From: Eledone cirrhosa
Lineage: Eukaryota
Direction of reading: 5' to 3'
NCBI GenBank assembly: GCA_964016885.1
Contig: OZ024754.1
Location: 13,082,001-13,146,000, forward strand
DNA length: 64,000 nucleotides
The notes under the pieces were generated by a model. That model made no database searches, was not told the DNA's origin, and saw only the letters and a list, made by a program, of their open reading frames with translations. How positions within the stretch are numbered: the first letter of the stretch is position 1; each line of letters opens with the position of its first letter. The position numbers and the translations under genes are program-made. Positions 1,896 through 63,080 of the stretch are shown in pieces.

Positions 1896-2299
1896 TAATA
1901 TTAATTTATAGACTGTATAAGAGTATTTCATTTATTCTAATTAGTTTACACAATTATCGCTGAAACTAATTCACCTCAGACCTCAAGATTGTTCACAAGA
2001 AGAAACCATATAAAGACAGCTGCTTAGGGTTGCTTAGCGTATGTAACTAATCACGTAATAATTAATCACATATATACAGTGCTCGTTTAAAACTCGTGGC
2101 TTTATTTTATTACTCTTGTGTTTCTTTGCACTCCCTATCTCACTGTCAACAAAAGCCTCGGACTATGTCCAGTAGCTGGATTGACCCCTCTTTCTCTCCC
2201 GGTTACTTACATACATGTATTTCTTCTCAGTATGTTCTTTGCGTTTTTTTTTTCCTCTTTTCCCATCTGTTTAATTTTTTTCTCTCTCTCCTTTTTTCA

Positions 2300-2398
2300 C
2301 CCAATAACTTCCACAAGTTATTGATGCACTGGAGTTAGACATATTGTCTTTAATGCGTTGAAATGTCCGTGATCTCCAGCAGACGACTGAAGAAGGGA
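2300..2398 (+). ncRNA. non-circularly permuted hammerhead-like RNA, copy A
   Basis: GACAT-A-TTGTCT ... T-GAA-ATGTC ... AGACGA-CTGAAGA-AGGG. Stem III GACAT/ATGTC, stem I TTGTCT/AGACGA, upstream hairpin CAATAACTT/AAGTTATTG. Confidence 0.7.
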
Positions 2399-2495
2399 TT
2401 GTCCCCCGTTTGTGCTTTCCTTTTATTTTTAAATACACTTAATCAAGTAATCACACAGCTCCCTGTTTTTTCCATATTTATATATATATATATAT

Positions 2496-3960: not shown

Positions 3961-4151
3961 GGAGGTGGATTGGCAGTATCGGTAGAGGATCGTACGCCAT
4001 GCTTTGCAGCAAAGAGTTACAGTCCTTTATGGTCTGAGTTCAAATCCCACCGAGGTTAACTTTGTCTTTCATCCTTACGGGGTCGATAAAATAAAGTACC
4101 AGTAATACACTGGGATAATTGGTGGCCTTGTGCCAAAAGTAGAAACAATTA
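3961..4151 (+). mobile_element. tRNA-derived SINE, family 1
   Basis: Same box A/box B/core/3' motifs. Confidence 0.9.
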
Positions 4152-4164
4152 TCTATCTATCAAG

Positions 4165-4569: not shown

Positions 4570-4673
4570 TGTCCCAACGACTTTTTTTAGCCGTTGTTCG
4601 CACCAACCGGAGGTATATGGTCTTTAAAGCGATGAAATGCCTATGATGGTTGGAAGATCACTGATGAAGGACA
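4570..4673 (+). ncRNA. non-circularly permuted hammerhead-like RNA, copy B
   Basis: AGGTAT-A-TGGTCTT ... T-GAA-ATGCCT ... AAGATCA-CTGATGA-AGGACA. Stem III 6 bp, stem I 7 bp (one G-U each). Upstream TGTCC and hairpin CAACG/CGTTG. The element is bounded by (TA)n at ~4510 and ~4723. Confidence 0.72.
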
Positions 4674-5634: not shown

Positions 5635-5968
5635 TTATTCTCCCCAACAGTAGAGTAACCTTTGGTCATTTGAATGGCTGCTATTTTTAGTAGCGAGAGA
5701 TTGACCTGTCCACCTTGCTTTCAGTCTTTGCACACGGTACTAGACAAAGTTGTTTCATCATTCATTTGTTGGGGCAGTTTTGTATGGCGCCAGCTTGTAT
5801 TTTGAACTCGGGAGTCTTATATTCTCCGAGAGAGAAAAGCCTTCTGACGAGGATCTCTTTCTCAATGAAATCCGCTTGGATTATCTATTTGTTCTGGGAT
5901 CTGAAACCGCGGTAAAGGCACATATAGTAAATACAGTGAATTTTTTTCTTTATTTCTTTCCCCTTGTT

Positions 5969-7705: not shown

Positions 7706-7943
7706 TTATATATATATAGTAATAATAATAAATGTAAAGACTAAAATCCGAAGAGATCTCGATAAGGATAAATATATATCAAATACACACATATATATAT
7801 ATATATATATATTAGAAAAGGGAATTAAGGTTCTACACAAAACAGTGGATATAGAGAAAAGGTGAAGTTGGAAATAGCACTGAAAAAATATTTTAGGGTC
7901 TGTTTTTCTTATTTTATCCTTTCTTTCATTCGTCAAAGTGACA

Positions 7944-8122
7944 TTAGCAGTATCGGTAGAGGGTCGGACGCTATGCTTTCCAGCATAGTTACGTCCCTTT
8001 ACGATCTGAGTTCAAATCCCGCCGAGGTTGACTTTGCCTTTCATCCTTACGGGGTCGATAAAATAAAGTACCAGTAATGCACTGGGTAATTGCTGGCCTT
8101 GTGCCTAAAGTAGAAACAATTA
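7944..8122 (+). mobile_element. tRNA-derived SINE, family 1
   Basis: Near-identical to 1432-1610. Confidence 0.9.
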
Positions 8123-8203
8123 TTGAGAAGATAACATTATTGAAAAGATGAGAGGGACAATTCTTTTTAAAAAAAAGTTTTATAATGTATATAAAGTATA
8201 TAA

Positions 8204-9020: not shown

Positions 9021-9123
9021 TGTCTTTAGATAAAAAATAACAGGTCCATTCATGATATATAGAGAGGAAGAGCCATATATCACTTGAGAAGCACATATAT
9101 AAGATTTTCTGGAACCATCTATA

Positions 9124-9317
9124 TAATTCTTTCTACTTTTTGGCACAAGGCCAGCAATTTCACCAGTGTATTACTGGACCTTTATTTTATCGACCCCCGT
9201 AAGGAAGAAAGACAAAGTTAACCTCGGCAGGATTTGAACTCAGACCTTAAAGGGCCGTAACTTCATGCTGCAAAGCATGGCGTCTGACCCTCTACTGATA
9301 CTGCCAATCCACCACCT
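9124..9317 (-). mobile_element. tRNA-derived SINE, family 1
   Basis: Reverse-complement match to the family, more diverged. Confidence 0.85.
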
Positions 9318-9660: not shown

Positions 9661-9936
9661 GTTGTCTACCCAATCAAGGTTATCAATCTGAGCTAGTCCA
9701 GTTAGTGTGTTTTATTTTATCGTAGATGTTTAAATATCATTGGAAGATATGTTTGTGTTGCTGCTGCTGTTGTTGTTGTTGCTGTTGTTGTGGTTTTGGT
9801 GTTGTAGTTGTTGCTGTAGTTGTTGTTTTCGCTGTTGTTGTTGTTGTTGTTGTTGTTGCTGTGGTTTTGTCATTGTTGTTGTTGTTGTAGTTCTTAATGT
9901 TGTTTTTCTTATTACAATATTTGTTTCCGTAAATCA

Positions 9937-10101
9937 TAATTGTTTCTACTTTTGGCACAAGGCCAGCAATTCAATTACCCCAGTACATTACTGGTACTTT
10001 ATTTTATCGACCCCCGCAAGGATGAAAGGCAAAGTTAACCTCGGCGGGATTTGAACTCAGAATGGCAAGGGCCGTAACTATGCGTCAAAGCATGGCGTCC
10101 G
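9937..10101 (-). mobile_element. tRNA-derived SINE, family 1 (5'-truncated)
   Basis: Reverse-complement match; its tail merges into the (TTG)n tract at 9755-9890. Confidence 0.85.
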
Positions 10102-10362
10102 ATAGTGGTTGTGTGGGCGGTGGTGATGGTGATGATAACGATGGTGGGGGTGGTAGATGTGCGGGATTCACGGTGTTTCTCTCTATCTTTATCTACGTGG
10201 CTTTCACTATGTGTGTGTGTGTGTGTGGATATCACTTGGTTTGTGTGTTTATGTCTTTAATTATACTTATGTGTGTTTTATGTGTTTTATGTGTGTTTTA
10301 TGTATGTTTTATGTATGTTTTATGTGTGTTTTATTGATACCTAAATATCAATACATGTGTAT

Positions 10363-21975: not shown

Positions 21976-22120
21976 GACAATGAGGGTAAGTGACGGTGAA
22001 GTATTTGACTGCTATACTCTGAAAGTATATAACACGCAATGTTTCTCACCTGGTCTTTTCTATGGTGTATCGTGTAGTAATAGTAGTAGTTGTAATATTG
22101 GTAGTGGTAGTAGTAGTAGT

Positions 22121-22279
22121 TGGTCGGAGGCTATGCTTTGCAGCATAGTTACGTCCCTTTACGGACTAAGTTCAAATCCCGCCTCGGTTAACTTTGCCTT
22201 TAATCCTTACGGGGTCGATAAAATAAAGTACCAGTAATATACTGAGTAATTTGCTGGCCTTGTGCCTAAAGTAGAAACA

Positions 22280-22283
<4 letters not shown>
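22121..22283 (+). mobile_element. tRNA-derived SINE, family 1 (5'-truncated) with expanded (ATT)n tail
   Basis: Box B, core and 3' end present, followed by (ATT)n 22280-22315. Confidence 0.85.
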
Positions 22284-22315
<32 letters not shown>

Positions 22316-23139
22316 GTTCTTTGAGTCTCAGTCATTGATGTTATTTAACTGGAAATTTTGTAGAAATGAATATCAAGCCACTACCTGCAGCCTCAGATAT
22401 TCAGGACGTATCAGAGGGTTTTTGCTGTTCCCAGCAAGCATGCCTTTTGAAGTGTTCCAAAAAGCGGGGCGGGACCAATTTTCTTTAACCATCCTTGGAA
22501 ACTTTTTGAGATAGTACCTAGTGCGCCTATGACAATCGGGACCACTTTGACTTCATGGCAGTTCCAAATCCTTTTTACCTCCCACTTTAAATCCTGGTAT
22601 CGGTTAATTTTCTCCCTCTCCTTCTCTTGCACTCTCGTGTCGAATGGGCAGGCTACATTTACAATCAGACACGATCTTTTTTCCTTGTCCAAAACCACCA
22701 GGTCAGATGTATTGTGTTCCAGTTTCTTGTCCGTCTGTATCCTAAAATTCCACAGCACCTTCACCTGATCGTTTTCTATCACCGACTCTGGCTTATGCTC
22801 ATACCACTTCTCAGAATGTGGTAAATTGTTTACTTTGCATAGGTGCCAGTGGATCACCCTGCCCATCACATCATGTCTCCAGCCTTTATAGTGAGTCTGG
22901 GCTAGGTGTTTACACTCGGATACAATGTGAGCCACGGTCTCCTCTCTCTCTCCTCACAGATTCTACACTGTGGGCTAGCCTCCTCCTTGTAAATATGGTG
23001 TTTCAGCCACTTCGTTTTGAGGGTCTGCTCTTGCGCAGCCATTAGAATTCCTTCTGTAGCCTTTTTAAGGTCTCCTCATTTCAACCAGTTCCATGTCTGT
23101 GGATCTCTAAATTCAGTTTTCTCAAAGAAGGTACTATGA
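22316..23139 (-). mobile_element. 5'-truncated R4/Dong-like (RLE) non-LTR retrotransposon
   Basis: Minus-strand peptide includes CCHC (CRIC....ETVAHIVSEC), RHD motif, decayed PD-D-K endonuclease (NTSDLVVLD...IVNVACPFD...KEREKINRYQDL) and VPIVIGALG. Bounded by (AAT)n on both sides on the element strand. Confidence 0.85.
22411..23075 (-). pseudogene. zinc knuckle and restriction-like endonuclease domains of the R4/Dong-like element
   Basis: ORF 22411-22935 with upstream extension (ILMAAQEQ...CRIC). Catalytic residues are altered and there is no RT. Confidence 0.8.
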
Positions 23140-23794: not shown

Positions 23795-25480
23795 ACAACA
23801 ACAACAGCAGCAGCAGCAGCAGCAGCAACAACCACAGCAACAGCGGCGGTGGCGGTCGTAGTACCAGCAGCAACAACAGAAGTAACAGCAGCTCTGACGA
23901 CAACAACAACAACAACAACAACAACAAGAAAGAAAAACCAATCTCGTTTGCATGTATCGCAAAGAACCTGGAAACCATCCTTATAACAAATGAGGAATTA
24001 CAGGAAGCAAAGAAGATGGTGACGAAAACCGGACACTGAGCAATCTGCAAGGTAGCCGAAACATTTTTCGAAACCCAACAGCACTCTACGGTCACGTACC
24101 GTACAGTAAGCACAAAATCACGTAGGGTTGAAAGAGCCACAGAGGCTCAAATACAAACAGACTTAGGGTCTGTGTGGCAGCGGAAAACGCATATCACCAA
24201 AGGCAAGAAATATGCCACCGTGGACGTGCTTTTTGCCTCACCCCAGGAGGCAAAGGCTCAATCCTTAGTGACCCTAAGGAGCGAGGAAATGGTGTTGGAC
24301 TTTTCTTGGCTGGCCGCGTCTGTCCTCGTCGGAATCGAGGACAAAACAACTGTACTGCAAGTACAGAAAAAAGTACGAGAAGATTGGGGGTAGGCACCTC
24401 CATTGAGACGTTAATTCAAACCCACCAGGAGTGCATCGAAGCTATCCCGGATGGGATAGACTTCGGTAACGGCACTCAACTGCCCATAAGTGTTGAGGGC
24501 AAACGCCCGATGCTTTCGCTGTGGGTCGAAGACTCACCTCAGGGCCTTCTGCAATGAGAAGACCCTGAGAAAGGAGACCCCCCCCCCTCCTTCCGAAACC
24601 GGCTCCACTGCTAGCAGCAACAGGACAGGCGGCAAGCAGCAGGGATAGGTCCGTGGCACCCATACCCACGCCACGGAAATCAAGAACAGCAGTGGAAGTA
24701 TTAACGACAACAACAGTAATACGAACTGCAGCTGCAACAGAGACTCCACTGCAAACATCACCAACAACAACAAGTGAAAGAGTGGAGCTGGTACCCCTCC
24801 CCCACCTCACAGAATCTGACATAGAATGTGAGGTGGGAAAGGGATGGCAAAAGGTTACAAGAAGGGACAAACGCATAAGCAGCGCATCGTCGCCTTCGAA
24901 AAGAGAGGAAAGAAATGAAAAAAGGGTAAAGGCTACTGCAAAGAGACTTACAGCAACAACACCACCAACACCATCACCACCCACACTAGCACCACCATCA
25001 CCACCGGCGGCAACCCCACCGCAAACAACAACAACACCTTCAATACCACCACCACAAGCACCAACATCGCAAATACAACAACAAAACACACACACCCAGC
25101 AACAACGACAAGAAAAGAGCTGAACCACACTCCACCCCCAGAAAAACAAATGCACAGCAATAAATACACACAACAAGAAACTAATTGAACACACAGACAT
25201 TTCACAGCACGACTACATAATACCAGCACCAATCAATACACCAACGAACATAAGACTGGTAAGAATAGCACAGAAACAATACATAAACATTAAAACGAAA
25301 TTTTCCAACGCAGTTGGTGATTTCAGAGACCTAAGAGGGACACTCAACCGGAGAGTATATTCGGATATACTCACAGAAGAGCCGACGACCAGCCGAAGGG
25401 ACGATTCAACGGTCCCTTCACCAGACGATCAAGTGAAAAGGGATGGAGAAACCATCCTTCCTCTACGAGAAGTAAGGTAA
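23656..25480 (+). pseudogene. Tx1-like ORF1 (disrupted)
   Basis: S/N-rich N-terminus, knuckle CFRCGSKTHLRAFC at 24511-24552, T/P-rich C-terminal part, several stops and frameshifts. Confidence 0.8.
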
Positions 25481-25514
25481 GTGGTTTTTCCCACCTTTTC
25501 CACTCCATTTCAAC

Positions 25515-28341
25515 ATGACCTCATTCAGAATAGTCAGCATAAATGTGGGTGGCTTGGGGTCGTCATGGAAGCAGGGCCACCTGCTCAACGACCTCAGGTC
25601 ACTAAACATAGATGTAGTGGCCATCAGCGAGACCAGAATCTCCGAAGCACGGGCCTTCGCACCGATCTTCGGCGGCTACGATGTGTACGCATCTCCCAGC
25701 CGTCCTGGATCGGGGCAGGAGTTGCAGTGCTTTTTCGGAGAGGTTTGGATCTCGCCATACGGGCCATCTTCCTAGACCCAGAAGGTAAGTTGGTGGTGCT
25801 GGACGTGACCAGCGGAGACGGGTAAGCGTTCAGGCTAGTGGCCGTCTATGCCCCGACAGGAGCGGGGCGGCCTGATTTCTTCCGGCGTCTGGAGACCTTT
25901 CTAGGAACGTCCCGCTCTTTAGTTTTAGTGGGCGACTGGAACGGGATCTTAGATGCACGCTGGGACTGTGTGGGATTAGGGGAGGAGAGTGCAAGAGCCT
26001 CACCAACCTGCTCAGGCGTTTTGAACTATCTTACAGATACCGATTAGATTTCCCGAATGTGCCAATGTGGACTTGGACAAACCGTATCGGGTCATCCAGA
26101 ACATATCTAGATAGAATATTTTGTAGGGAAACAGATAGGTCTAGCAAAGGCTGTCCACAATTCAAGATAGTCAGCTACACGGACCACAAATTCGTGATCT
26201 GTGTGCTTGACTTAGATAGGCTTCATAGACGAGGACCCGGCTACTGGAAGCTTAGCGCGTCCTAACCAGCGCGCAAGGCCTACAGAGACCGGATTAGCAA
26301 ACTAGTTAAGCGAGCGTTGACGGGGGCCATCGTCAACAACAAGTGGTGGTTTGCTCAGAAAAGAGCGATTAGAATAGAGTCCATTAGGTTTAGTAAGGCT
26401 TTAGCTATAGAGAAAAATAGAGCAGAGGGAGAACTAGTTAGAAAATTAGAAGAGGCGCTTAGTAAAGGCATCGCGACCGACGTACTTGCGGCGAAATTGG
26501 CCATAATCAGGCCCATAACTCTGCTAAACACAGAGATCAAGATTTTGGCCAAGGTGCTAGCAAAGAGGTTGTCGCTTGTCGTTGGCGGTCTGGTGGGAGA
26601 GGCGCAGACATGCGCCATTCCCGACAGATCTATCCACGACAACCTCCACCTCATGCGATACATTGTAGAGAGGGTAGCTAGGTAACCTGGCACGGGTGGG
26701 TCCTTGATCAATTTAGATCAGTCGAAAGCTTTCGATAGGGTCGACCAACGTAACCTAGCGGCAGTCCTGGGTGCGGCTGGCTTTGGGCCCGTCTTCAGAG
26801 GATGGATCGCTACCATGCACAGCGACATCTGCTCTGTGGTGAGAGTGAACGGTGACCTTTCGGAACCGTTCAACATCATGCGCTCGGTCCGCCAAGGATG
26901 TCCCCTCTCGTCCCTCTTGTACGTATTGACTCTCGAGCCATTACTGCACAAACTGGAGACGTTGAGGGTGGTCCCGCGCGAACTAGGATGCGGAAGATCC
27001 GTGTCAGCATATGCGGACGATGTCACCGTAGTGGTGTCGAACGCCAAACACATCGAGGCGATCGGCACTACACTCAGAGAATACGAAGCAATGACAGGAG
27101 CAATGATCAACCAGGAAAAGTCAGTGGGCCTGCAGCTCGGCACCTGGAGAGGCAGGTCCATGCTGTCCAACAGCGTCGTCGGGCGTTGGACGGATGGACC
27201 GGTTAAATTGCTAGGGGTCTGGTTCGGTCCGGACCTCCAGACGGACAAAAACTGGGATGAGGTGACGTGCAGGGTGGCTTCTCTCACCCAGAAATGGGCG
27301 GAGAGGAAGCTATCCCTGAAAGGTCGAGCGGAGGTGGCTAACGCGTACATCGCGTCCGTCATCTACTACCGTCTGACCGTCGTACCTTGTCCTAAGCCCC
27401 GCCTGACTGCGCTGGAGCGTTTGCTCTTTCGCTTTTTGTGGAAGGGACGCGCTCCGATGGTCAGGCGGTCCATCTGCTGTCAACACCCGCTACGTGGTGA
27501 GCTGGGCATGCCGTGGCTGATGATGCGCAGACACGCGCTCAGGCTACGACATCTCCACCTCTTCCTCGACGGTGATCAGGTGTGGTCGCCGTTTGTTAGA
27601 CGCTTCTTTCCCCAGCTCGTCTCCTTGACGGAGCTGCAGTCCTGGGTCAAGTGAAGACCGAGAGGGAACACTTGGAGACTGGAATGTCTTCAGGCGCTCA
27701 CAGCCCTCGACCAATCGAGCAATGTGATCGGTGGAAACTCCACCTCGGCGTTCTATAGAGGATTAGTGGAGGGGACGACGTACTTGGGGAAACTATAGGC
27801 GTCGACGAAAATCAACTAGCCAATCTCTTCGGAAGAACTTTCGGGCCGGGGCCTATGGACAGAAATCCCTGGCCTGCCAGTTCGGGATAAACTCTACAGG
27901 CATGGAGGTGTCGTCAACCGGGCATGCCCGAGATGCGCGCAGGGCGACGAAACCGTCCTGCACGCACTCGTCCAGTGTCCGAGCATTGCTGACTTGTGGG
28001 TTTATGTCGAACACCGGCTGTCGCGTGTAGGGCGGATCCGGCCATCAGCTGAGTCCATCGTGAGGATTGCCCCACCCTCTTCCTTTAGCCGGGAAGGGCA
28101 GGCAGTTTTTATCTGTCTGGTGGCCATGGCGAAAGAGATAGTATGATGGACACGTTTGAAAGGGCTGAAGACGAGCACTTACCTCTTCGGTGATGCCCTG
28201 ATTGACTTTTTCAAATTTAATTTGACAAGGAAAATTAGGGTAGAGAGGGAAGTGCTCTCTTCCCAGCCGTTTGTTGAAAGATGGGTGAGAGAAGCAAGAA
28301 TGGCGCGAGTGAATGGGCCTACTCTGAGTATGTGTCTGTAA
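25515..28341 (+). pseudogene. Tx1-like ORF2 (APE endonuclease + RT, disrupted)
   Basis: SINVGGL, AISET, VYAP, GDWN, TDH, DQSKAFD, RQGCPLS, AYADD and CPRC..ETVLHALVQC are split by stops/frameshifts, with an internal deletion near 26502. Confidence 0.92.
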
Positions 28342-28814
28342 ATTAAAGGTGGAAAACTGGGAGAGGGCACTTGCCCTGGTGGTCAGGGTCACTGTGGCTT
28401 TTTAATGGGCTTTCTCCACGAATGTCCTTCGGAAGTCTCCCCCCTATTTGGGAATTTTTCATTGTCATTTTTATTACATCCTCTGTTTTTTTTACACGCA
28501 GAAATGCCCATTTGTACCGTCCTGTATTGTCCTGTACTGTCCTTAATGTCTACTTTATGTAAACCCTTGAGGTTAATAAAGAAAGTATTATTATTATTAT
28601 TATTGACGAAAGTGGATGTACGTTTTTTGAAGCTCCGTGAGTAAGCAATTTTTGAGGATTAATTGTAGAGAATTGTTTATTTTTTGTACCGCTGAAGCAT
28701 TATAAGACATTAATTTGTATCCTGTGAAGGAATAACTCATAATATTTGGGCCTTTTGGCCCAAATATTTGAACTTTATTTTGAAAAAAATAATAATTTTT
28801 TTCTCAAAAAAAAC

Positions 28815-30677
28815 ATGGCGGAGCCACGCCCCCTAGAGGCGGGTCTGCTGTCGTGCAACGGCGACTTGAGCGTTGAGAGGAGAGGTGAGGCGAGGAGCGC
28901 CACCAGCACGAATGTGAGCAGCGACAGTGCCAGCACCAACGGGCCGAGCGGCGCGGAAGGTGGTAACAGCGACAACACCAACACCAACAAGCCGAACAGC
29001 GCAGAAGGTGGTAATAGCGAGAGCACCAACAAGGCCAACAGCACAGAAGGTAACCACGACACAGGGGAGAACAACAACAGCAATAGCAGCAGCAACACCA
29101 ACAAGAACAACAACAGTGACAACACCAACAAGAACACTTTCGCTGCTGTGGCAGCGGCTAAAAGGAGACCATGCTACAGCATCGACTTAACCAACAGAGA
29201 GGAAAAGTTGGCCCAGGCCTGGAAAATCATAAATCAAGAGCAGACCTGGGCAAACTTAACTGTCCCGGCAGAAGCCATTGAGGCAGTGGAAAAAAGAACG
29301 GTGCATTTCAGATGCATCTCAGTAGAGACAAAGAGGGCAGCGATAATCGCCCAAGCTGACATAGAAGCCGCACTGAAACACATCAGAGAGGACACAGACT
29401 TCATAGAGAGGGGCAGGCAATACGGCACCGTTTCGGTGCTGTTCAAGTCTGAAGCCCTCGCTGTGAAGCATTCAATGACCCCTTGCAAAACCAGCAAGGT
29501 CATAATGTACCCCTCCCACATGGGAAAACGAATAGCACGTGTGCGCATTCCCAGGATTCCACCAGGACTTGATATGTGGTGGCTCCTGGGTTGCGTAATC
29601 GTGGAAGGAACGGATACAGTCCCGGTAGAGGCAACGAGAACTGCCAGGGACGACTGGTCCGGGGTTGATCTGGAGATACTGCTCCAAATCAGACCCGAAA
29701 ACGTAAAAACAATCCCGGACCACATCCGCCTCCAAAACGGGAGGGTGTTGCATATAATGACTGAGGGCAAAAGGCCGCATTGTTTCCTTTGTGGGGAAAC
29801 GACACACTTGCGAGCCTTCTGCCCTCAACTGCCGAAAAGCGCAAGGGGTCGAAAGATTCCACTGCTGGCGACGCCGGGACAAGGACCACCAGCAACACCG
29901 TCAACAATGGAACCACCAAAATTGCACACCCAGGGGGGAAACGAGGAAAGCTCTCCCATTCCCCCTCCCCCCCAAAATACACACACGAACAAGAACATAA
30001 ACACTCACTCAGACACAAACACGCTCACAGCCACAGACCCCTCATCCTCCAGCAGTGAAGATGAGGGAAAACCAAAGTCCCCCAAAATACAAAAAACAAA
30101 ACACAAAAAAAAAAGAAATCCACAAAGCACAAACACCCCCACAAAAAAAAATACACACACCACCCACACAAACATTTTCCCCACAGCATCACCAACACAA
30201 CCACCAAAATCCCCCAAACGCAAACAAGCTAAACAGACACAAGAACAAATAGACACACAAACATCAGAAACTACAGACACCCCACCCACAACAAACGCAG
30301 ACACAATAGAAACAACACTAACAAAGCTATCACCACCACAATCACACGAACAAATAAAACCCGAGCAACAAAACATTAAAAACTTCGTGCTTGCCAGAAG
30401 GGCCAACAAGGAATTGATGGCCCATGTAGCACGAAGCACAAACATCGAAAAAGACGGGGAAACATTTGAAGCGAGCACATTTCGCGTACCAGATAATTTG
30501 CTTCTGATGCGAATGTCGCTCGCTTCATACAAAGAAATTCGAAAGAGCTTTCCTCGGGATGTGGGAACCCCGAACGTAAAACCCACGTCAAGACTATTAA
30601 AGGGGTTCCCAAAAGAAACCCCACAAACCATGGAGGTCGAACCACCCGACCTTCACAAGACCCCGGAAGGTAAGTAA
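28815..30677 (+). CDS. Tx1-like ORF1 nucleic-acid-binding protein (620 aa from first ATG)
   Basis: Open frame with ATG at 28815 (AACATGG), CCHC knuckle CFLCGETTHLRAFC and low-complexity basic flanks. Confidence 0.88.
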   Translation: MAEPRPLEAGLLSCNGDLSVERRGEARSATSTNVSSDSASTNGPSGAEGGNSDNTNTNKPNSAEGGNSESTNKANSTEGNHDTGENNNSNSSSNTNKNNNSDNTNKNTFAAVAAAKRRPCYSIDLTNREEKLAQAWKIINQEQTWANLTVPAEAIEAVEKRTVHFRCISVETKRAAIIAQADIEAALKHIREDTDFIERGRQYGTVSVLFKSEALAVKHSMTPCKTSKVIMYPSHMGKRIARVRIPRIPPGLDMWWLLGCVIVEGTDTVPVEATRTARDDWSGVDLEILLQIRPENVKTIPDHIRLQNGRVLHIMTEGKRPHCFLCGETTHLRAFCPQLPKSARGRKIPLLATPGQGPPATPSTMEPPKLHTQGGNEESSPIPPPPQNTHTNKNINTHSDTNTLTATDPSSSSSEDEGKPKSPKIQKTKHKKKRNPQSTNTPTKKNTHTTHTNIFPTASPTQPPKSPKRKQAKQTQEQIDTQTSETTDTPPTTNADTIETTLTKLSPPQSHEQIKPEQQNIKNFVLARRANKELMAHVARSTNIEKDGETFEASTFRVPDNLLLMRMSLASYKEIRKSFPRDVGTPNVKPTSRLLKGFPKETPQTMEVEPPDLHKTPEGK

Positions 30678-30706
30678 ACCTTTCCTCTCCCATTCATCCT
30701 GCCAGC

Positions 30707-33700
30707 ATGGCCATAAGAGTAGGAAGTTTAAATGTTCGTGGCCTGGGGTCGCCCTGGAAGCAAGGTCACTTGCTCAACGACCTCAGGTCACTAGGAATGG
30801 ATGTAATTGCCATCAGCGAGACCAGAATTTCCGACACACGCGCACTGGCGCCGATTTTCGACGATTATCAGATCTTTGCATCTGTTAGTCGGCCGGGAAT
30901 GGGAGGTGGAGTGGCTGTGCTGTTTAGGAAATGTCTGGATCTCGAGGTAAGGTCAATCTTCCGGGATCCTGACGGAAAGTTGGTGGTCCTGGACGTGAGC
31001 AATAGCGAAGGTGGTGCCTTTAGACTGGTGGCCGTCTACGCCCCTACTGGGGCCGGTCGGCCGGACTTCTTTAGGCGCCTGGAAAACTTTCTGCTTACGT
31101 CTCGCCCTTTACTGTTAATAGGGGATTGGAATGGCATCTTAGAAGCACGCTGGGATTGTGTGGGAGTATCTGATAGGAGCGGGGGGTGCAAAAGCCTCAA
31201 GTACCTGATCAGCCAGTTTCAACTGTCTGACAGGTACCGACTAGATTTCCCTAATGCGCCAGTATGGACCTGGACCAATCGCATAGGGTCATCTAGATCG
31301 TACATAGATAGGATTTTCATTAGGAAAAGAGATAGAAATAGTGTAGGATGTCCACATTTTAAAACGGTTGCCTATTCAGATCACAAGCTTGTGATCTGTA
31401 TGGTCGACCTAGATAAGACACGTAGGTTAGGACCTAGCTACTGGAAGCTAAACATGTCGTTTCCGGCACGTAAAGCTTACAGGGACCGGGTCAACAACTT
31501 AGTTAAGCAAAAGTTGACAGGGGGGGTTGTCAACAACAGGTGGTGGGGGGCACTCAAAAGAGAGATTAGAGCAACCTCGATAGGATTTAGCAAAGAAGTA
31601 GCAATAGAGAAAAATAGAAAGGAGGAGGGGCTGATAGCTAAGTTAGACGAGGCTATTTGTAGTGGCATTGCAACAGACGTGCTAGCGGCGAGAATGGCAC
31701 TAGACCATTTCTTCAATGCGAAACACGAAGGTTGCATTGTCAGAGCTAAGGCGCGTGCTCTGAGGAACGAGGGAACCAAAGCTGCCCGATGGGCTCGCTT
31801 TGCAGAGACGCAGCGTGGAAATAAAACCACAATTCGGTCTTTGACGGATCGAGATGGACACGAACTGAGCGATTCCAAGCAGATGTGTGAGGCCTTTCGC
31901 CAGCACTTTGCTCGATTGTTCGGGAGGATGGGTGAGTCGGAGACGGCGGCGGACTTCAGTCCCTACCTCGACGGCTTGCCACGCCTCTCGACGGCCGACG
32001 CTGAGCGCTGCGAAGAGCCGATAACATCAGCCGAAATTCAGGACGCCCTTGTCGGCTGCTCGAGTCGCAAGTCACCCGGTTTGGATGGTCTGCCCTACGA
32101 GCTTTACGTAAATATGCCAGACTTGTTCTCCGATCTCCTCGAAGCGCTCTACTGCAACTGGCAGCAGAACGGGAGCATTCCCAGTTCTGTGAGCCGTGGC
32201 GTAGTGACGCTGATAAGGAAAGACGAGAACAAGAGGGACACACTAGATAATTTCAGGCCCATAACCCTGCTCAACACAGAGTTTAAGATTTTGGCCAAGG
32301 TGTTAGCGAAAAGGTTGGCGCTTGTCGTCAAAGATTTGGTTGGGGAGGCGCAAACTTGCGCAATCCCGACCAGGTCCATACACGACAACCTCCACCTCAT
32401 GCGATACATCATAGAGAGGGTTGGGTGCAAACCTGGCTTCGGTGGGGCTCTGATCAATTTAGATCAATCGAAAGCATTCGATAGGGTCGACCATCGGTAC
32501 TTGGAGGCTGTCCTCGAGGCGGCTGGCTTCGGCCCCGTCTTCAGAAGCTGGATCGCTGCAATGTACAGCGGCATCCGCTCGGTGGTCAAAGTTAATGGCC
32601 ACCTCTCGGAACCGTTTCAGATCTCTCGATCGGTCCGTCAAGGGTGCCCTCTCTCCTCCCTTCTGTACGTATTGACTCTTGAGCCTCTACTGCGGAAGCT
32701 GGAGTTGTTGCAGGGCATCCCGCTCGAACCGGGACGTAGAAAGGCTGCGTCCGCTTATGCGGACGACATCACCGTGATGGTGTCGGACACCTCGGAAATC
32801 GAGTTGATCCGCACCCATTTGGAGGAATATGAAAGGTTGACGGGAGCAAAACTTAACCCGGAAAAGTCGGTGGGCTTGCAGCTCGGCACCTGGAGAGGCA
32901 AGTCCATGCCGTCCAACAGCGTCGTTGGGCGCTGGACAGACGGACCGGTAAAGTTGCTCGGGGTTTGGTTCGGACCAGACCTCCAGGTGGATAAGAATTG
33001 GGACGAGGTGACGAGCAGGATAGCCAACCTCACCCAGAAATGGGCTGAGAGAAAGCTATCACTGAAAGGGCGGGCGGAGGTGGCGAACGCGTACATCGCG
33101 TCCGTCATCTACTACCGCCTGACCGTCGTGCCTTGCCCCCGTCCACGCCTCGCCAATTTGGAACGGCTCCTTTTCAAATTTTTGTGGAGGGGACGGGTCC
33201 CGTTGGTGAGGCGGTCCATCTGCTGCCAGCACCCTCTTCGTGGAGGGCTGGGCATGCCGTGGCTAATGATGCGCAGACATGCGCTGAGGCTGCGACATCT
33301 CCAGATATTTTGCCTAAACGGTGAACAGGTGTGGTCGCCGTTTGTTAGACGGGCCTTTCCGCAGCTCATCTCTTTGACTGAGCTGCAGTCCTGGGTCAAG
33401 AAGAGACCGAGACTGGGCGACTGGCATCTGGAATGTTGCCAGGCGCTCACTGCACTCTGCAAGGTGGGCAATGCGGTCAGTGGAACTTCCACTCAAGATT
33501 TCTATAGAGGATTAGTGGAGGGCAAGTGCGATGACGTACTAGGAGAGGCTCTGGGCGTCAACGAAGTAGAACTGACCAGTATGTTCCGGAGGACTTTCGA
33601 GCCGGGGACGATGGATAACTTCCAGAAATCCCTCGCTTGGCAGTGCTACCGGGGGGCGCTGCCGGTTCGGGATAAACTCTACAGGCACGGAAGTGCTGTC

Positions 33701-34126
33701 AGACGAACCTGCCCGAGATGCGCGCAGAGCGACGAAACCGTTCTGCACGCACTCGTCCAGTGTCCGTGCATTGCTGACTTGTGGGGTTATGTCGAACAGC
33801 TATTGTCGCGTGTAGAACGGATCCGGCTATCGTCCGAGTCCATAGTGAAGATTGACCCGCCGCCTTCTTTTGGTCAGGAAGGGCAGGCAATTTTCCTCTG
33901 CCTGGTGGCAGTAGCGAAAGAGGTTGCATGGTGGACCAGGTTGAAAGGACTGAAGACAGACACTTTTCTCTTCGGCCAATCCCTCATCAACTTCTTCAAG
34001 TTTCACTTGGAAAGGAAGGTGAGGGTGGAGAGAGAAGTGCTGCCCCCCAGTACATTTACTGAAAGGTGGGTGAATGTGGCGAGAATGGCCCGCGTGAGTG
34101 GGCCTACTCTGGTCATGCGCCTGTAG
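30707..34126 (+). CDS. Tx1/L1-like ORF2: AP endonuclease, reverse transcriptase, C-terminal CCHC domain (1139 aa)
   Basis: SLNVRGL, ISET, VYAP, GDWN, YIDR, SDH; KSPGLDG, FRPITLLN, DQSKAFD, RQGCPLS, AYADD, GGLG; CPRC....ETVLHALVQC. Confidence 0.97.
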   Translation: MAIRVGSLNVRGLGSPWKQGHLLNDLRSLGMDVIAISETRISDTRALAPIFDDYQIFASVSRPGMGGGVAVLFRKCLDLEVRSIFRDPDGKLVVLDVSNSEGGAFRLVAVYAPTGAGRPDFFRRLENFLLTSRPLLLIGDWNGILEARWDCVGVSDRSGGCKSLKYLISQFQLSDRYRLDFPNAPVWTWTNRIGSSRSYIDRIFIRKRDRNSVGCPHFKTVAYSDHKLVICMVDLDKTRRLGPSYWKLNMSFPARKAYRDRVNNLVKQKLTGGVVNNRWWGALKREIRATSIGFSKEVAIEKNRKEEGLIAKLDEAICSGIATDVLAARMALDHFFNAKHEGCIVRAKARALRNEGTKAARWARFAETQRGNKTTIRSLTDRDGHELSDSKQMCEAFRQHFARLFGRMGESETAADFSPYLDGLPRLSTADAERCEEPITSAEIQDALVGCSSRKSPGLDGLPYELYVNMPDLFSDLLEALYCNWQQNGSIPSSVSRGVVTLIRKDENKRDTLDNFRPITLLNTEFKILAKVLAKRLALVVKDLVGEAQTCAIPTRSIHDNLHLMRYIIERVGCKPGFGGALINLDQSKAFDRVDHRYLEAVLEAAGFGPVFRSWIAAMYSGIRSVVKVNGHLSEPFQISRSVRQGCPLSSLLYVLTLEPLLRKLELLQGIPLEPGRRKAASAYADDITVMVSDTSEIELIRTHLEEYERLTGAKLNPEKSVGLQLGTWRGKSMPSNSVVGRWTDGPVKLLGVWFGPDLQVDKNWDEVTSRIANLTQKWAERKLSLKGRAEVANAYIASVIYYRLTVVPCPRPRLANLERLLFKFLWRGRVPLVRRSICCQHPLRGGLGMPWLMMRRHALRLRHLQIFCLNGEQVWSPFVRRAFPQLISLTELQSWVKKRPRLGDWHLECCQALTALCKVGNAVSGTSTQDFYRGLVEGKCDDVLGEALGVNEVELTSMFRRTFEPGTMDNFQKSLAWQCYRGALPVRDKLYRHGSAVRRTCPRCAQSDETVLHALVQCPCIADLWGYVEQLLSRVERIRLSSESIVKIDPPPSFGQEGQAIFLCLVAVAKEVAWWTRLKGLKTDTFLFGQSLINFFKFHLERKVRVEREVLPPSTFTERWVNVARMARVSGPTLVMRL

Positions 34127-44504: not shown

Positions 44505-44816
44505 AGATCAAAAGATGGTTAAAAGAGTTCCATGTACTTTATTATGCGCAAAAACAAATATCATCATGGGATGATATTTGCGTTCTCATCGCAAGTGTTT
44601 TTTAAGCTTCATATCATGTCTCCCTATTTTATCTGATGAGAACGCAAATATCATCTCATGATGATATTTGTTTTTGAAATGCGCATAATAAAATACATGG
44701 AACTCTTTTAACCATCTTTTGATCTTATATTATTTATACTCCTGTCTTATAAACTGTGGAGTGCTACTTATCCGGTATTTGCATTGCTTTATTGTGGTAC
44801 AATAAAACTCACCTCC

Positions 44817-62018: not shown

Positions 62019-62379
62019 GTGGTTACACAACAGTTAGTTCACCATACCGAGAACAATTGTTTCACCTTGGCGGATGCCCAGCTCGGAATGGGCATGGTTA
62101 TAGGAACAGGAAGGAGAACCGTACGAACACGCATGCGCAGAAACCCGCTCACTTCACACAGGCAATACTAGAATGCGTGCGAGAGGTGTAAGGGAGAAAA
62201 CTGCGAAAGTCCGAAAAGTTTCTAGTTGAAAATAAAATTACAAATAACATATTGCTTTATACTCCAATACAAAGTTCTATGCAAACTACAACACACACAC
62301 GTGTGTGCATATGTATATAATATATATATATATTTATTTATTTATATATATATATGTGTGTGTGTGTATATGTATTTTA

Positions 62380-62440
62380 GGTATCTAGTCTTTAATGCGC
62401 CGAAATACCAACGATAATCAGCAGACTACTAATGAGGACA
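62380..62440 (+). ncRNA. non-circularly permuted hammerhead-like RNA, copy C (core mutated to CTAATGA)
   Basis: GGTAT-C-TAGTCT ... CC-GAA-ATACC ... AGACTA-CTAATGA-GGACA. Confidence 0.65.
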
Positions 62441-62878
62441 TTTTATCTCTTGGTCTATTTTTATTCATATGTCCATGTTCGCAATAAGGCAGCACGCCAT
62501 TCTTCATTCACATATTTTTTCCCTTCGCTGTGGTTCATATTTTTTCTGTCACCTTACTGCTATCACCTTTTCTCTCTCCTTCACCTGTTGACTTCCTCAA
62601 CTCCCGCTGCTGGTCTGGTCACTCACTCTCGGCTGGCCCCTTCCTCACACTTTCACTCATCCCTTCTCTGCTTCTCCCCCTCTCTCTCACTTCCTCCCGT
62701 CTGACCTGCTTGAATTTCTTTCCTCTATCAATCTTCTCGCGGCTCGGGCGTATCTATTTCTCCTCGTCAATTTGATTTGTCAGACTTAAGCCCACAGGAT
62801 TCATTGACTTGTCTCTATTTTCCTCTCTTTGCTTTGCATTACTACCACGTGTTTGTTTCCTTCCCTCTGTGTTCCCAC

Positions 62879-62981
62879 TGTCCCGATAACTTAATTGAGT
62901 TATCGCTCGCACTGATTTTAGGTATCTAGTCTTTAATGCGTCGAAATACCAACGATAATCAGCAGACTACTGATGAGGACA
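62879..62981 (+). ncRNA. non-circularly permuted hammerhead-like RNA, copy D (most complete)
   Basis: TGTCC-hairpin(CGATAACT/AGTTATCG)-CGCA ... GGTAT-C-TAGTCT-TTAATGCGTC-GAA-ATACC ... AGACTA-CTGATGA-GGACA; AUC site. Confidence 0.78.
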
Positions 62982-63004
62982 TTTTATCTCTTGGTCTATT
63001 TTTA

Positions 63005-63080
<76 letters not shown>

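Follow-up and report, generated by a model that had tools for sequence, protein, structure and literature searches.

A dispersed family of non-coding repeats in the Eledone cirrhosa genome carries an RNA motif with a complete hammerhead core, in which the strands follow one another in the order S, G, C (cut-site block, GAAA block, CUGANGA block) and in which two additional helices, P0 and P1, appear to open the core at the A9/N10.1 step. We consider it probable that this is an SGC-order hammerhead whose stem II finds its partner strand upstream, and that it would cut in cis as a kinked monomer. The original prediction had thought the non-circular order possibly novel and had placed rearranged hammerheads in a few animal repeats; the order is in fact already published as type SGC by Eckert et al. 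2023, whose accessible text places it in metatranscriptomes instead (PMC10085705). What appears to be new here is the open-core form and its carriage by animal retroelements.

Within the window (the whole 64-kb stretch of DNA that was analysed, from a host genome of 3.0 Gb), a descriptor made of core letters and base pairing gave exactly 5 matches, compared with 1 in 60 shuffled windows, and helix T was present in 0 of the shuffled-window matches (1 match in 60 shuffles). An nhmmer profile found exactly 5 copies in the window, the identical set, while a sixth, weak match at 28077 (stems of 4-5 bp, deviating spacing) was dropped by stricter scans. These are the five loci at which the motif had originally been reported, and both the order of the three blocks and the stem I and III pairings quoted for them were verified. 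Rfam at the gathering threshold returned 0 matches in the window, in line with the expectation that standard descriptors would miss the family. The five core loci stand, but their extent does not, as the motif begins about 45 nt further upstream (at 62879, 4570 and 2297). Likewise, the five copies described as covarying do pair, but they represent four families only, and those at 62380 and 62921 are tandem units of one insertion, so that five copies are not five independent samples (Table 1). Apart from copy 62380, the window copies have the CUGANGA, GAAA and UH elements together with both stem I and stem III. The core of copy 62380 reads CUAAUGA (A62431, core position 5), the same knock-out mutant that had been proposed as a control; with its leader also missing, this copy is predicted to be inactive. 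Copy 14151 has lost the 5' arms of P0 and P1. Minimum-energy z-scores of the window copies range from -1.4 to -1.8 (-1.8 for the focal family A copy), with pseudoknots falling outside the energy model.

Table 1. Motif copies in the window and elements of the focal family A copy; pairing values are those of the 22 family representatives
Feature	Position	Strand	Remarks
Complete open-core SGC-order hammerhead, family A	62879..62981	+	predicted cut 3' of C62926
Complete copy, family B (614-bp unit)	4570..4673	+	predicted cut 3' of A4617
Complete copy, family D	2297..2399	+	predicted cut 3' of A2343
Family C copy, leader broken off inside P1	14089..14170	-	predicted cut 3' of A14145
Shortened copy without leader, CUAAUGA core	62380..62440	+	predicted inactive
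One insertion of the non-coding family A unit	62374..63008	+	a 5'-truncated copy upstream, then the body and the full motif, with the 3' end lying in (TA)n
P0 5' strand	62879..62883	+	pairs with 62977-62981 directly after the core
P1 hairpin between P0 and stem II	62884..62905	+	92.9% paired; both sides changed in 5/7 pairs
Stem II 5' strand (leader)	62908..62911	+	pairs with 62937-62940; 87.3% paired
Helix T 5' strand	62912..62917	+	pairs with 62957-62962; 97% paired; both sides changed in 5/6 pairs
Kink-turn non-bulge strand	62918..62920	+	partner 62951-62956 (3-nt bulge, then G-A)
Block S: stem III 5' strand, AUC cut triplet, stem I 5' strand	62921..62932	+	
Block G: stem II 3' strand, GAAA, stem III 3' strand	62937..62950	+	
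Block C: stem I 3' strand, CUGAUGA	62964..62976	+	

From 5' to 3', the motif consists of the P0 5' strand, the P1 hairpin, the 5' strands of stem II, T and stem III, the cut site, the stem I 5' strand and a short linker, after which come the stem II 3' strand, GAAA, the 3' strands of stem III and T, one base, the stem I 3' strand, CUGANGA and the P0 3' strand. The fold proposed earlier is part of a larger one that spans 62879-62981: its stems I and III remain, and it is extended by three further helices and a putative kink-turn. In an alignment of 22 family representatives, which were hand-picked for intact cores and include some close kin, a 35-pair model of this fold is paired in 91.2% of 770 cells, with changes on both sides in 23 of the 35 pairs; none of 500 shuffles reached the pairing of the model, and with the partners slid it is 27-50%. 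The families were gathered by DNA and pattern searches and many share the spacing of the motif, which is constant between families (16 from cut to GAAA, 43 from cut to core). Covariation of stems I and III, part of the original prediction, was borne out (98.5% and 96.4% of cells paired in the 22 representatives), whereas stem II fared differently. Placed classically 3' of CUGAUGA it is paired in 36.4% of cells, compared with 87.3% when the upstream leader supplies the partner strand; the single closing pair N10.1-N11.1 holds in 16 of 22 rows, with three pair types plus wobble, but the rest of the partner strand lies upstream and not 3' of the core. In P0, 75.5% of cells are paired, and the alignment of 3 rows out of 22 is off by one column. 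The core, GAAA and U16.1 are invariant across the 22 representatives, and the UH rule holds in 22 of 22, H being A or C. Other arrangements were tried and rejected. A downstream partner for the stem II strand, in the region of 62480, lies in the tail, is absent from short-ended copies and pairs less well than the leader, and a type II or III hammerhead built with another GAAA failed in all three window families tested, where no further GAAA with a partner for stem III occurs within 100 nt.

Helix T and stem III are separated by a bulge of 3 nt and then G-A, which face N-G-A on the other strand; this is the consensus of a kink-turn such as Kt-7 or that of box C/D RNA. A at 1n, G at 1b and A at 2b are found in 22 of 22 rows, although these letters were outside the search pattern that recovered the families, and many families read CUGA / RUGAU; 2n is G in 17 rows, giving the full consensus in 17 of 22. 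Unlike the standard kink-turn, 2n is U in the other 5 rows, including the focal family A, and family F has Watson-Crick pairs and a plain 3-nt bulge at this site. Helix T, which is predicted to join stems I and II, is connected to their far ends by 0 and 1 nucleotides, and the kink-turn would fold it back along stem III onto those ends. Closure of the ring formed by stem III, the kink, T and stems I/II within one molecule would, by a rough estimate, be tight. Because of this tightness and of the plain bulge in family F, a domain-swapped dimer stays a real rival, albeit an unlikely one. It has the same pairings, distributed over two tandem units that form a ring, with the S and G strands of one meeting the leader and C strand of the other, and cutting would then require a dimer. 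Predicted folds in many rows favour T plus stem III as one long hairpin (in the focal family the predicted pairing of T and III is low, 0.21 and 0.25), tandem arrangement is frequent, with 24 tandem pairs in the 94 rows of family B, and amphibian and minimal Penelope-like element (PLE) hammerheads are described as acting as dimers in the available text of PMC7229834. However, a kink-turn is the motif that would allow one unit to fold back, T and III differ in length in step, being about 6 and 5 bp in the present families compared with about 10 and 11 bp in coral Naiads (read by eye from the available supplement of PMC8557442), and single-motif SGC and CSG constructs cleave during transcription, with concentration dependence not stated in the available text (PMC10085705).

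A 24-place pattern matched the genome 17,027 times, compared with 35 matches for a reversed control, and further families including family F gave 453 matches compared with 5 in the control, which supports a high-copy mobile family. The window is richer than average, with 2 copies found in a 400-kb evenly spaced genome sample. Exact matches number 47 for a 22-mer of family A and 1,235 for a 25-mer of family B. The motif-bearing units are non-coding, 530-680 bp long (period of 532-541 bp in family A, 614 bp in family B), arranged in tandem or inverted and inserted in (TA)n, and no open reading frame is joined to any unit examined. Copies are 96-99% identical, so the families are young, and the unit is covered in all 29 bins by contigs from two public runs of a single sample, in which the tandem joint is also visible. 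At least two further families (L219, L228 and others) have the same GAAA-to-core spacing with different stems. Animal non-LTR retrozymes likewise are non-coding tandem units with one hammerhead each, with PLE kinship and a proposed movement through circular RNA (PMC7229834; bioRxiv 10.64898/2026.07.22.740005); by the accessible parts of these sources they carry type I hammerheads, which the present units do not, and most of their monomers are shorter, at about 300 nt (range 51-972). Animal retrozymes make RNA circles (PMC7229834), whereas the units described here are known from DNA.

The 3' ends of the units are fixed at two points in (TA)n, 70-125 nt downstream of the predicted cut (about +82 and +124 in family A), while 5' ends are scattered and inverted partners are present. 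For mapping ends we took rows picked only for containing the motif's 3' half: 43 in family A and, from the first 100 matches listed, 94 in family B. Most copies read through the predicted cut (30 of 43 and 87 of 94, respectively), and 5' ends do not pile up there (+6 to -5), with 4 observed and 2.5 expected in family A (P 0.24) and 0 observed and 2.4 expected in family B. There is thus no genomic footprint of cutting; the template was continuous across the site, which suits a circle closed again by ligation as well as a multimer that was never cut. At a polymorphic site, the two partners of a tandem are alike in 20 of 22 pairs, compared with 52% expected, and this agreement together with the read-through fits a circular or homogeneous multimeric template. 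The same read-through, and 3' ends that lie well downstream of the cut, would be expected if the fold were kept as an element for protein binding or template recognition (by an L7Ae-family protein or a reverse transcriptase, for example), cutting rarely or never, with uncut multimers as the template; in the accessible text of a retrozyme preprint, 8 of 9 Xenopus retrozyme dimers also remained uncleaved in vitro (bioRxiv 10.64898/2026.07.22.740005). We regard this as improbable, since the catalytic letters, without exception, and the UH rule are conserved between families and in two unrelated retroelement classes, and re-ligated circles would likewise erase the cut from the genomic record.

The second of these classes came from a metagenome scan that covered at least 120 loci, in which 2 of 122 matches passed a stem filter. 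Among the matches listed, only one (L426) folds fully, with all seven pairings, a kink-turn and a GUC site, and its motif lies 380 nt behind a 667-aa open frame with reverse transcriptase (RT) and zf-RVT domains and a restriction-like endonuclease (RLE) end, a LINE type that we take to be the HERO clade. Relatives in the E. cirrhosa genome (L484-L507, L510) have the fold just behind the open frame in 22 of the best 30 loci, the cleanest version being L488:1975-2110. Two of the LINE copies continue head-to-tail into the next: 3,581 bp separate L488 from L489, and L504 passes into the 5' end that follows it. The LINE motif has a 12-bp P0 and an 8-bp P1; it is the same fold as in the units, located in a 3' UTR, but the element is autonomous and its P0 and P1 sequences differ. 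A literature search for a link between HERO elements and hammerheads found none. Among viral contigs there were 11 pattern matches, none of which folds by eye, and no relative of the LINE protein.

The (TA)n targets, tandem and inverted copies, fixed 3' ends and scattered 5' ends of the units match the description of Naiads, PLEs whose hallmarks according to Craig et al. 2021 (PMC8557442) are (TA)n targets, tandem and inverted copies and a tail of 30-45 bp. In its accessible sections that study reports no canonical hammerhead in Naiads, only notes of 'HHR_core' and 'HHR_half_core', and describes cephalopod Naiads as long inactive. Reading its available supplement by eye, we found that Naiad_Obim and Naiad_Ovul end in the present fold with the kink-turn and with a P1 loop nearly as here, that three Acropora Naiads have the same wiring with T and stem III longer, and that several nematode Naiad 3' ends (parts 13-15) read as type CSG, fully paired with varied stems; the accessible text of PMC10085705 gives only two natural CSG sequences. 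Naiads share with our units the (TA)n targets, tandem and inverted copies and a short tail, but they encode protein, whereas the units are non-coding with no Naiad open frame joined to them. Two exact-pattern genome searches for such a frame (N-terminal GIY-YIG, CxC, RT) gave 0 matches, which does not by itself show absence, and none lies between inverted unit pairs 3.2-3.6 kb apart. A GIY-YIG query of the genome returned only one PLE family, a young one with a C-terminal endonuclease (L514-L543; 784-aa frames, at least 150 copies identical over 92 aa); in the 11 of 30 loci viewed it has no CUGANGA within 1.2 kb behind the open frame, and it may use another ribozyme or none. That these searches found no Naiad open frame, and that cephalopod Naiads are described as long inactive while the present families are young, weighs against our preferred reading.

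Among published hammerheads the closest is type SGC (HRIMA-1 and SGC variants), which shares the S-G-C order, the full core and a helix that connects stems I and II at their far ends, of which our helix T is the equivalent (PMC10085705). As described in the accessible parts of that paper, SGC RNAs come from metatranscriptomes only and none was found in the genomes of known organisms, whereas the present form is in animal genomic retroelements; five examples were validated in vitro, at 0.007-0.19 per minute. The circular orders of types I-III (CGS, GSC, SCG) do not apply to our motif. Published SGC has a stem II of 5 bp directly after the core, its alignments and descriptors allowing at most an extra U (an extra base after A9 is tolerated, descriptor CUGAUGAUG), and is open where stem III and T end; in the present form the kink-turn links T to stem III instead, and the opening lies at A9/N10.1, by way of P0 and P1. 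Accordingly, a contiguous stem II strand of three or more pairs is not found (36.4% paired), and the published SGC descriptors, which we re-implemented without a positive control, match none of the 5 window copies and none of the 22 rows. The motif is nonetheless expected to work like a type SGC hammerhead, with cleavage predicted from the letters and pairings. Type CSG has the same cyclic strand order as the present form but is opened between stem III and T, with the core intact (PMC10085705). Judging from the orders, SGC, CSG and the present form would be three openings of one strand circle. We found no description of the open-core form or of non-circular hammerheads in animal retroelements in the literature covered, which lies mostly outside subscription journals; in the available text of Forgia 2023 (PMC10162972) no such variant appears under the terms searched, and the retrozyme preprint of Li et al. 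2026, as far as accessible, searched for type I only (bioRxiv 10.64898/2026.07.22.740005).

The exact point at which the core opens differs slightly between families. N10.1 comes from the base after A9 in most rows; in the focal copy, G62977 may pair with C62942 (N10.1-N11.1) in place of P0, and stem II of this family is short (4 bp) and weak. In family F and the LINEs, G10.1-C11.1 is supplied from the leader and P0 begins right after A9, and by eye G10.1 is leader-derived in Naiad_Obim and Naiad_Ovul too (available supplement of PMC8557442). For this reason the break is predicted to slide by one pair between families, always staying at the A9/10.1 step. In 16 of 22 rows the partner of N11.1 is the base after A9 (the remaining 6 being unpaired), and in only 4 of 18 it is a leader base, which might suggest an ordinary type SGC hammerhead with a one-pair stem II and leader helices that are mere accessories. 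This we hold to be very unlikely: a longer stem II after the core was another candidate that we rejected (36% paired), stem II with the leader, T, P0 and P1 all covary, and the leader provides G10.1 in the cases just named, including both LINEs. The modest z-scores would suit a chance match or an assembly artefact, but they come from a model that ignores pseudoknots, and the excess over the control pattern, the covariation in 22 representatives and the coverage by public contigs make this explanation negligible.

We lean, a little less firmly than for the fold itself, towards a broader reading in which this is a seventh wiring of the hammerhead, an inside-out circle opened in the core at A9/N10.1 with a four-way junction and a protein-bindable kink-turn, and the active ribozyme of Naiads, of their retrozyme derivatives and of HERO-type LINEs; non-circular hammerheads would thus be among the commonest ribozymes of animal genomes, and retrotransposition by way of circular RNA would be driven by them in two classes of retroelement that are unrelated. 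In the mechanism that we hold most probable, the motif would fold within one unit, the kink-turn bringing T back onto stems I and II, and tandem transcripts would be cut into monomers of 530-680 nt. A host ligase would circularise these unit-length RNAs, as in type I retrozymes (PMC7229834), and a Penelope-type RT/endonuclease acting in trans would prime 70-125 nt downstream of the cut, roll round the circle and copy it back into (TA)n. If true, the published assumption that CUGANGA is inseparable from its adjacent stem strands, on which the scheme of Eckert et al. is built (PMC10085705), would break, and non-circular hammerheads would move from anonymous environmental RNA to animal genomes, in tens of thousands of copies. 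It would also explain the apparent lack of hammerheads in Naiads and remove the argument that PLEs can dispense with them; that question can be addressed with transcripts of 105 nt. As a hammerhead found in nature and equipped with a kink-turn, the motif would also be a candidate protein-regulated ribozyme, and the open-core form would offer a new scaffold with free ends adjoining the active site.

The window also holds two canonical type I hammerheads with a short palindromic stem III (5838-5920 and 44624-44696, both on the + strand), of the dimer-forming kind known from Penelope-like elements, which Rfam missed at the gathering threshold. A LINE at 28743-34126 (+) has two open frames, one of 644 aa followed by one of 1150 aa that contains endonuclease, RT and zf-RVT domains, and a broken second copy of it lies at about 24500-28300; at 22411-22953 (-) there is a non-LTR C-terminal piece with the look of a restriction-like endonuclease and no Pfam match. 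Finally, a repeat family of 180-340 bp, unrelated to the ribozyme unit, occurs in at least 8 copies in both orientations, with positions at 1428-1806, 2630-2813, 3966-4152, 7943-8124, 9123-9311, 9936-10102 and 22105-22285.
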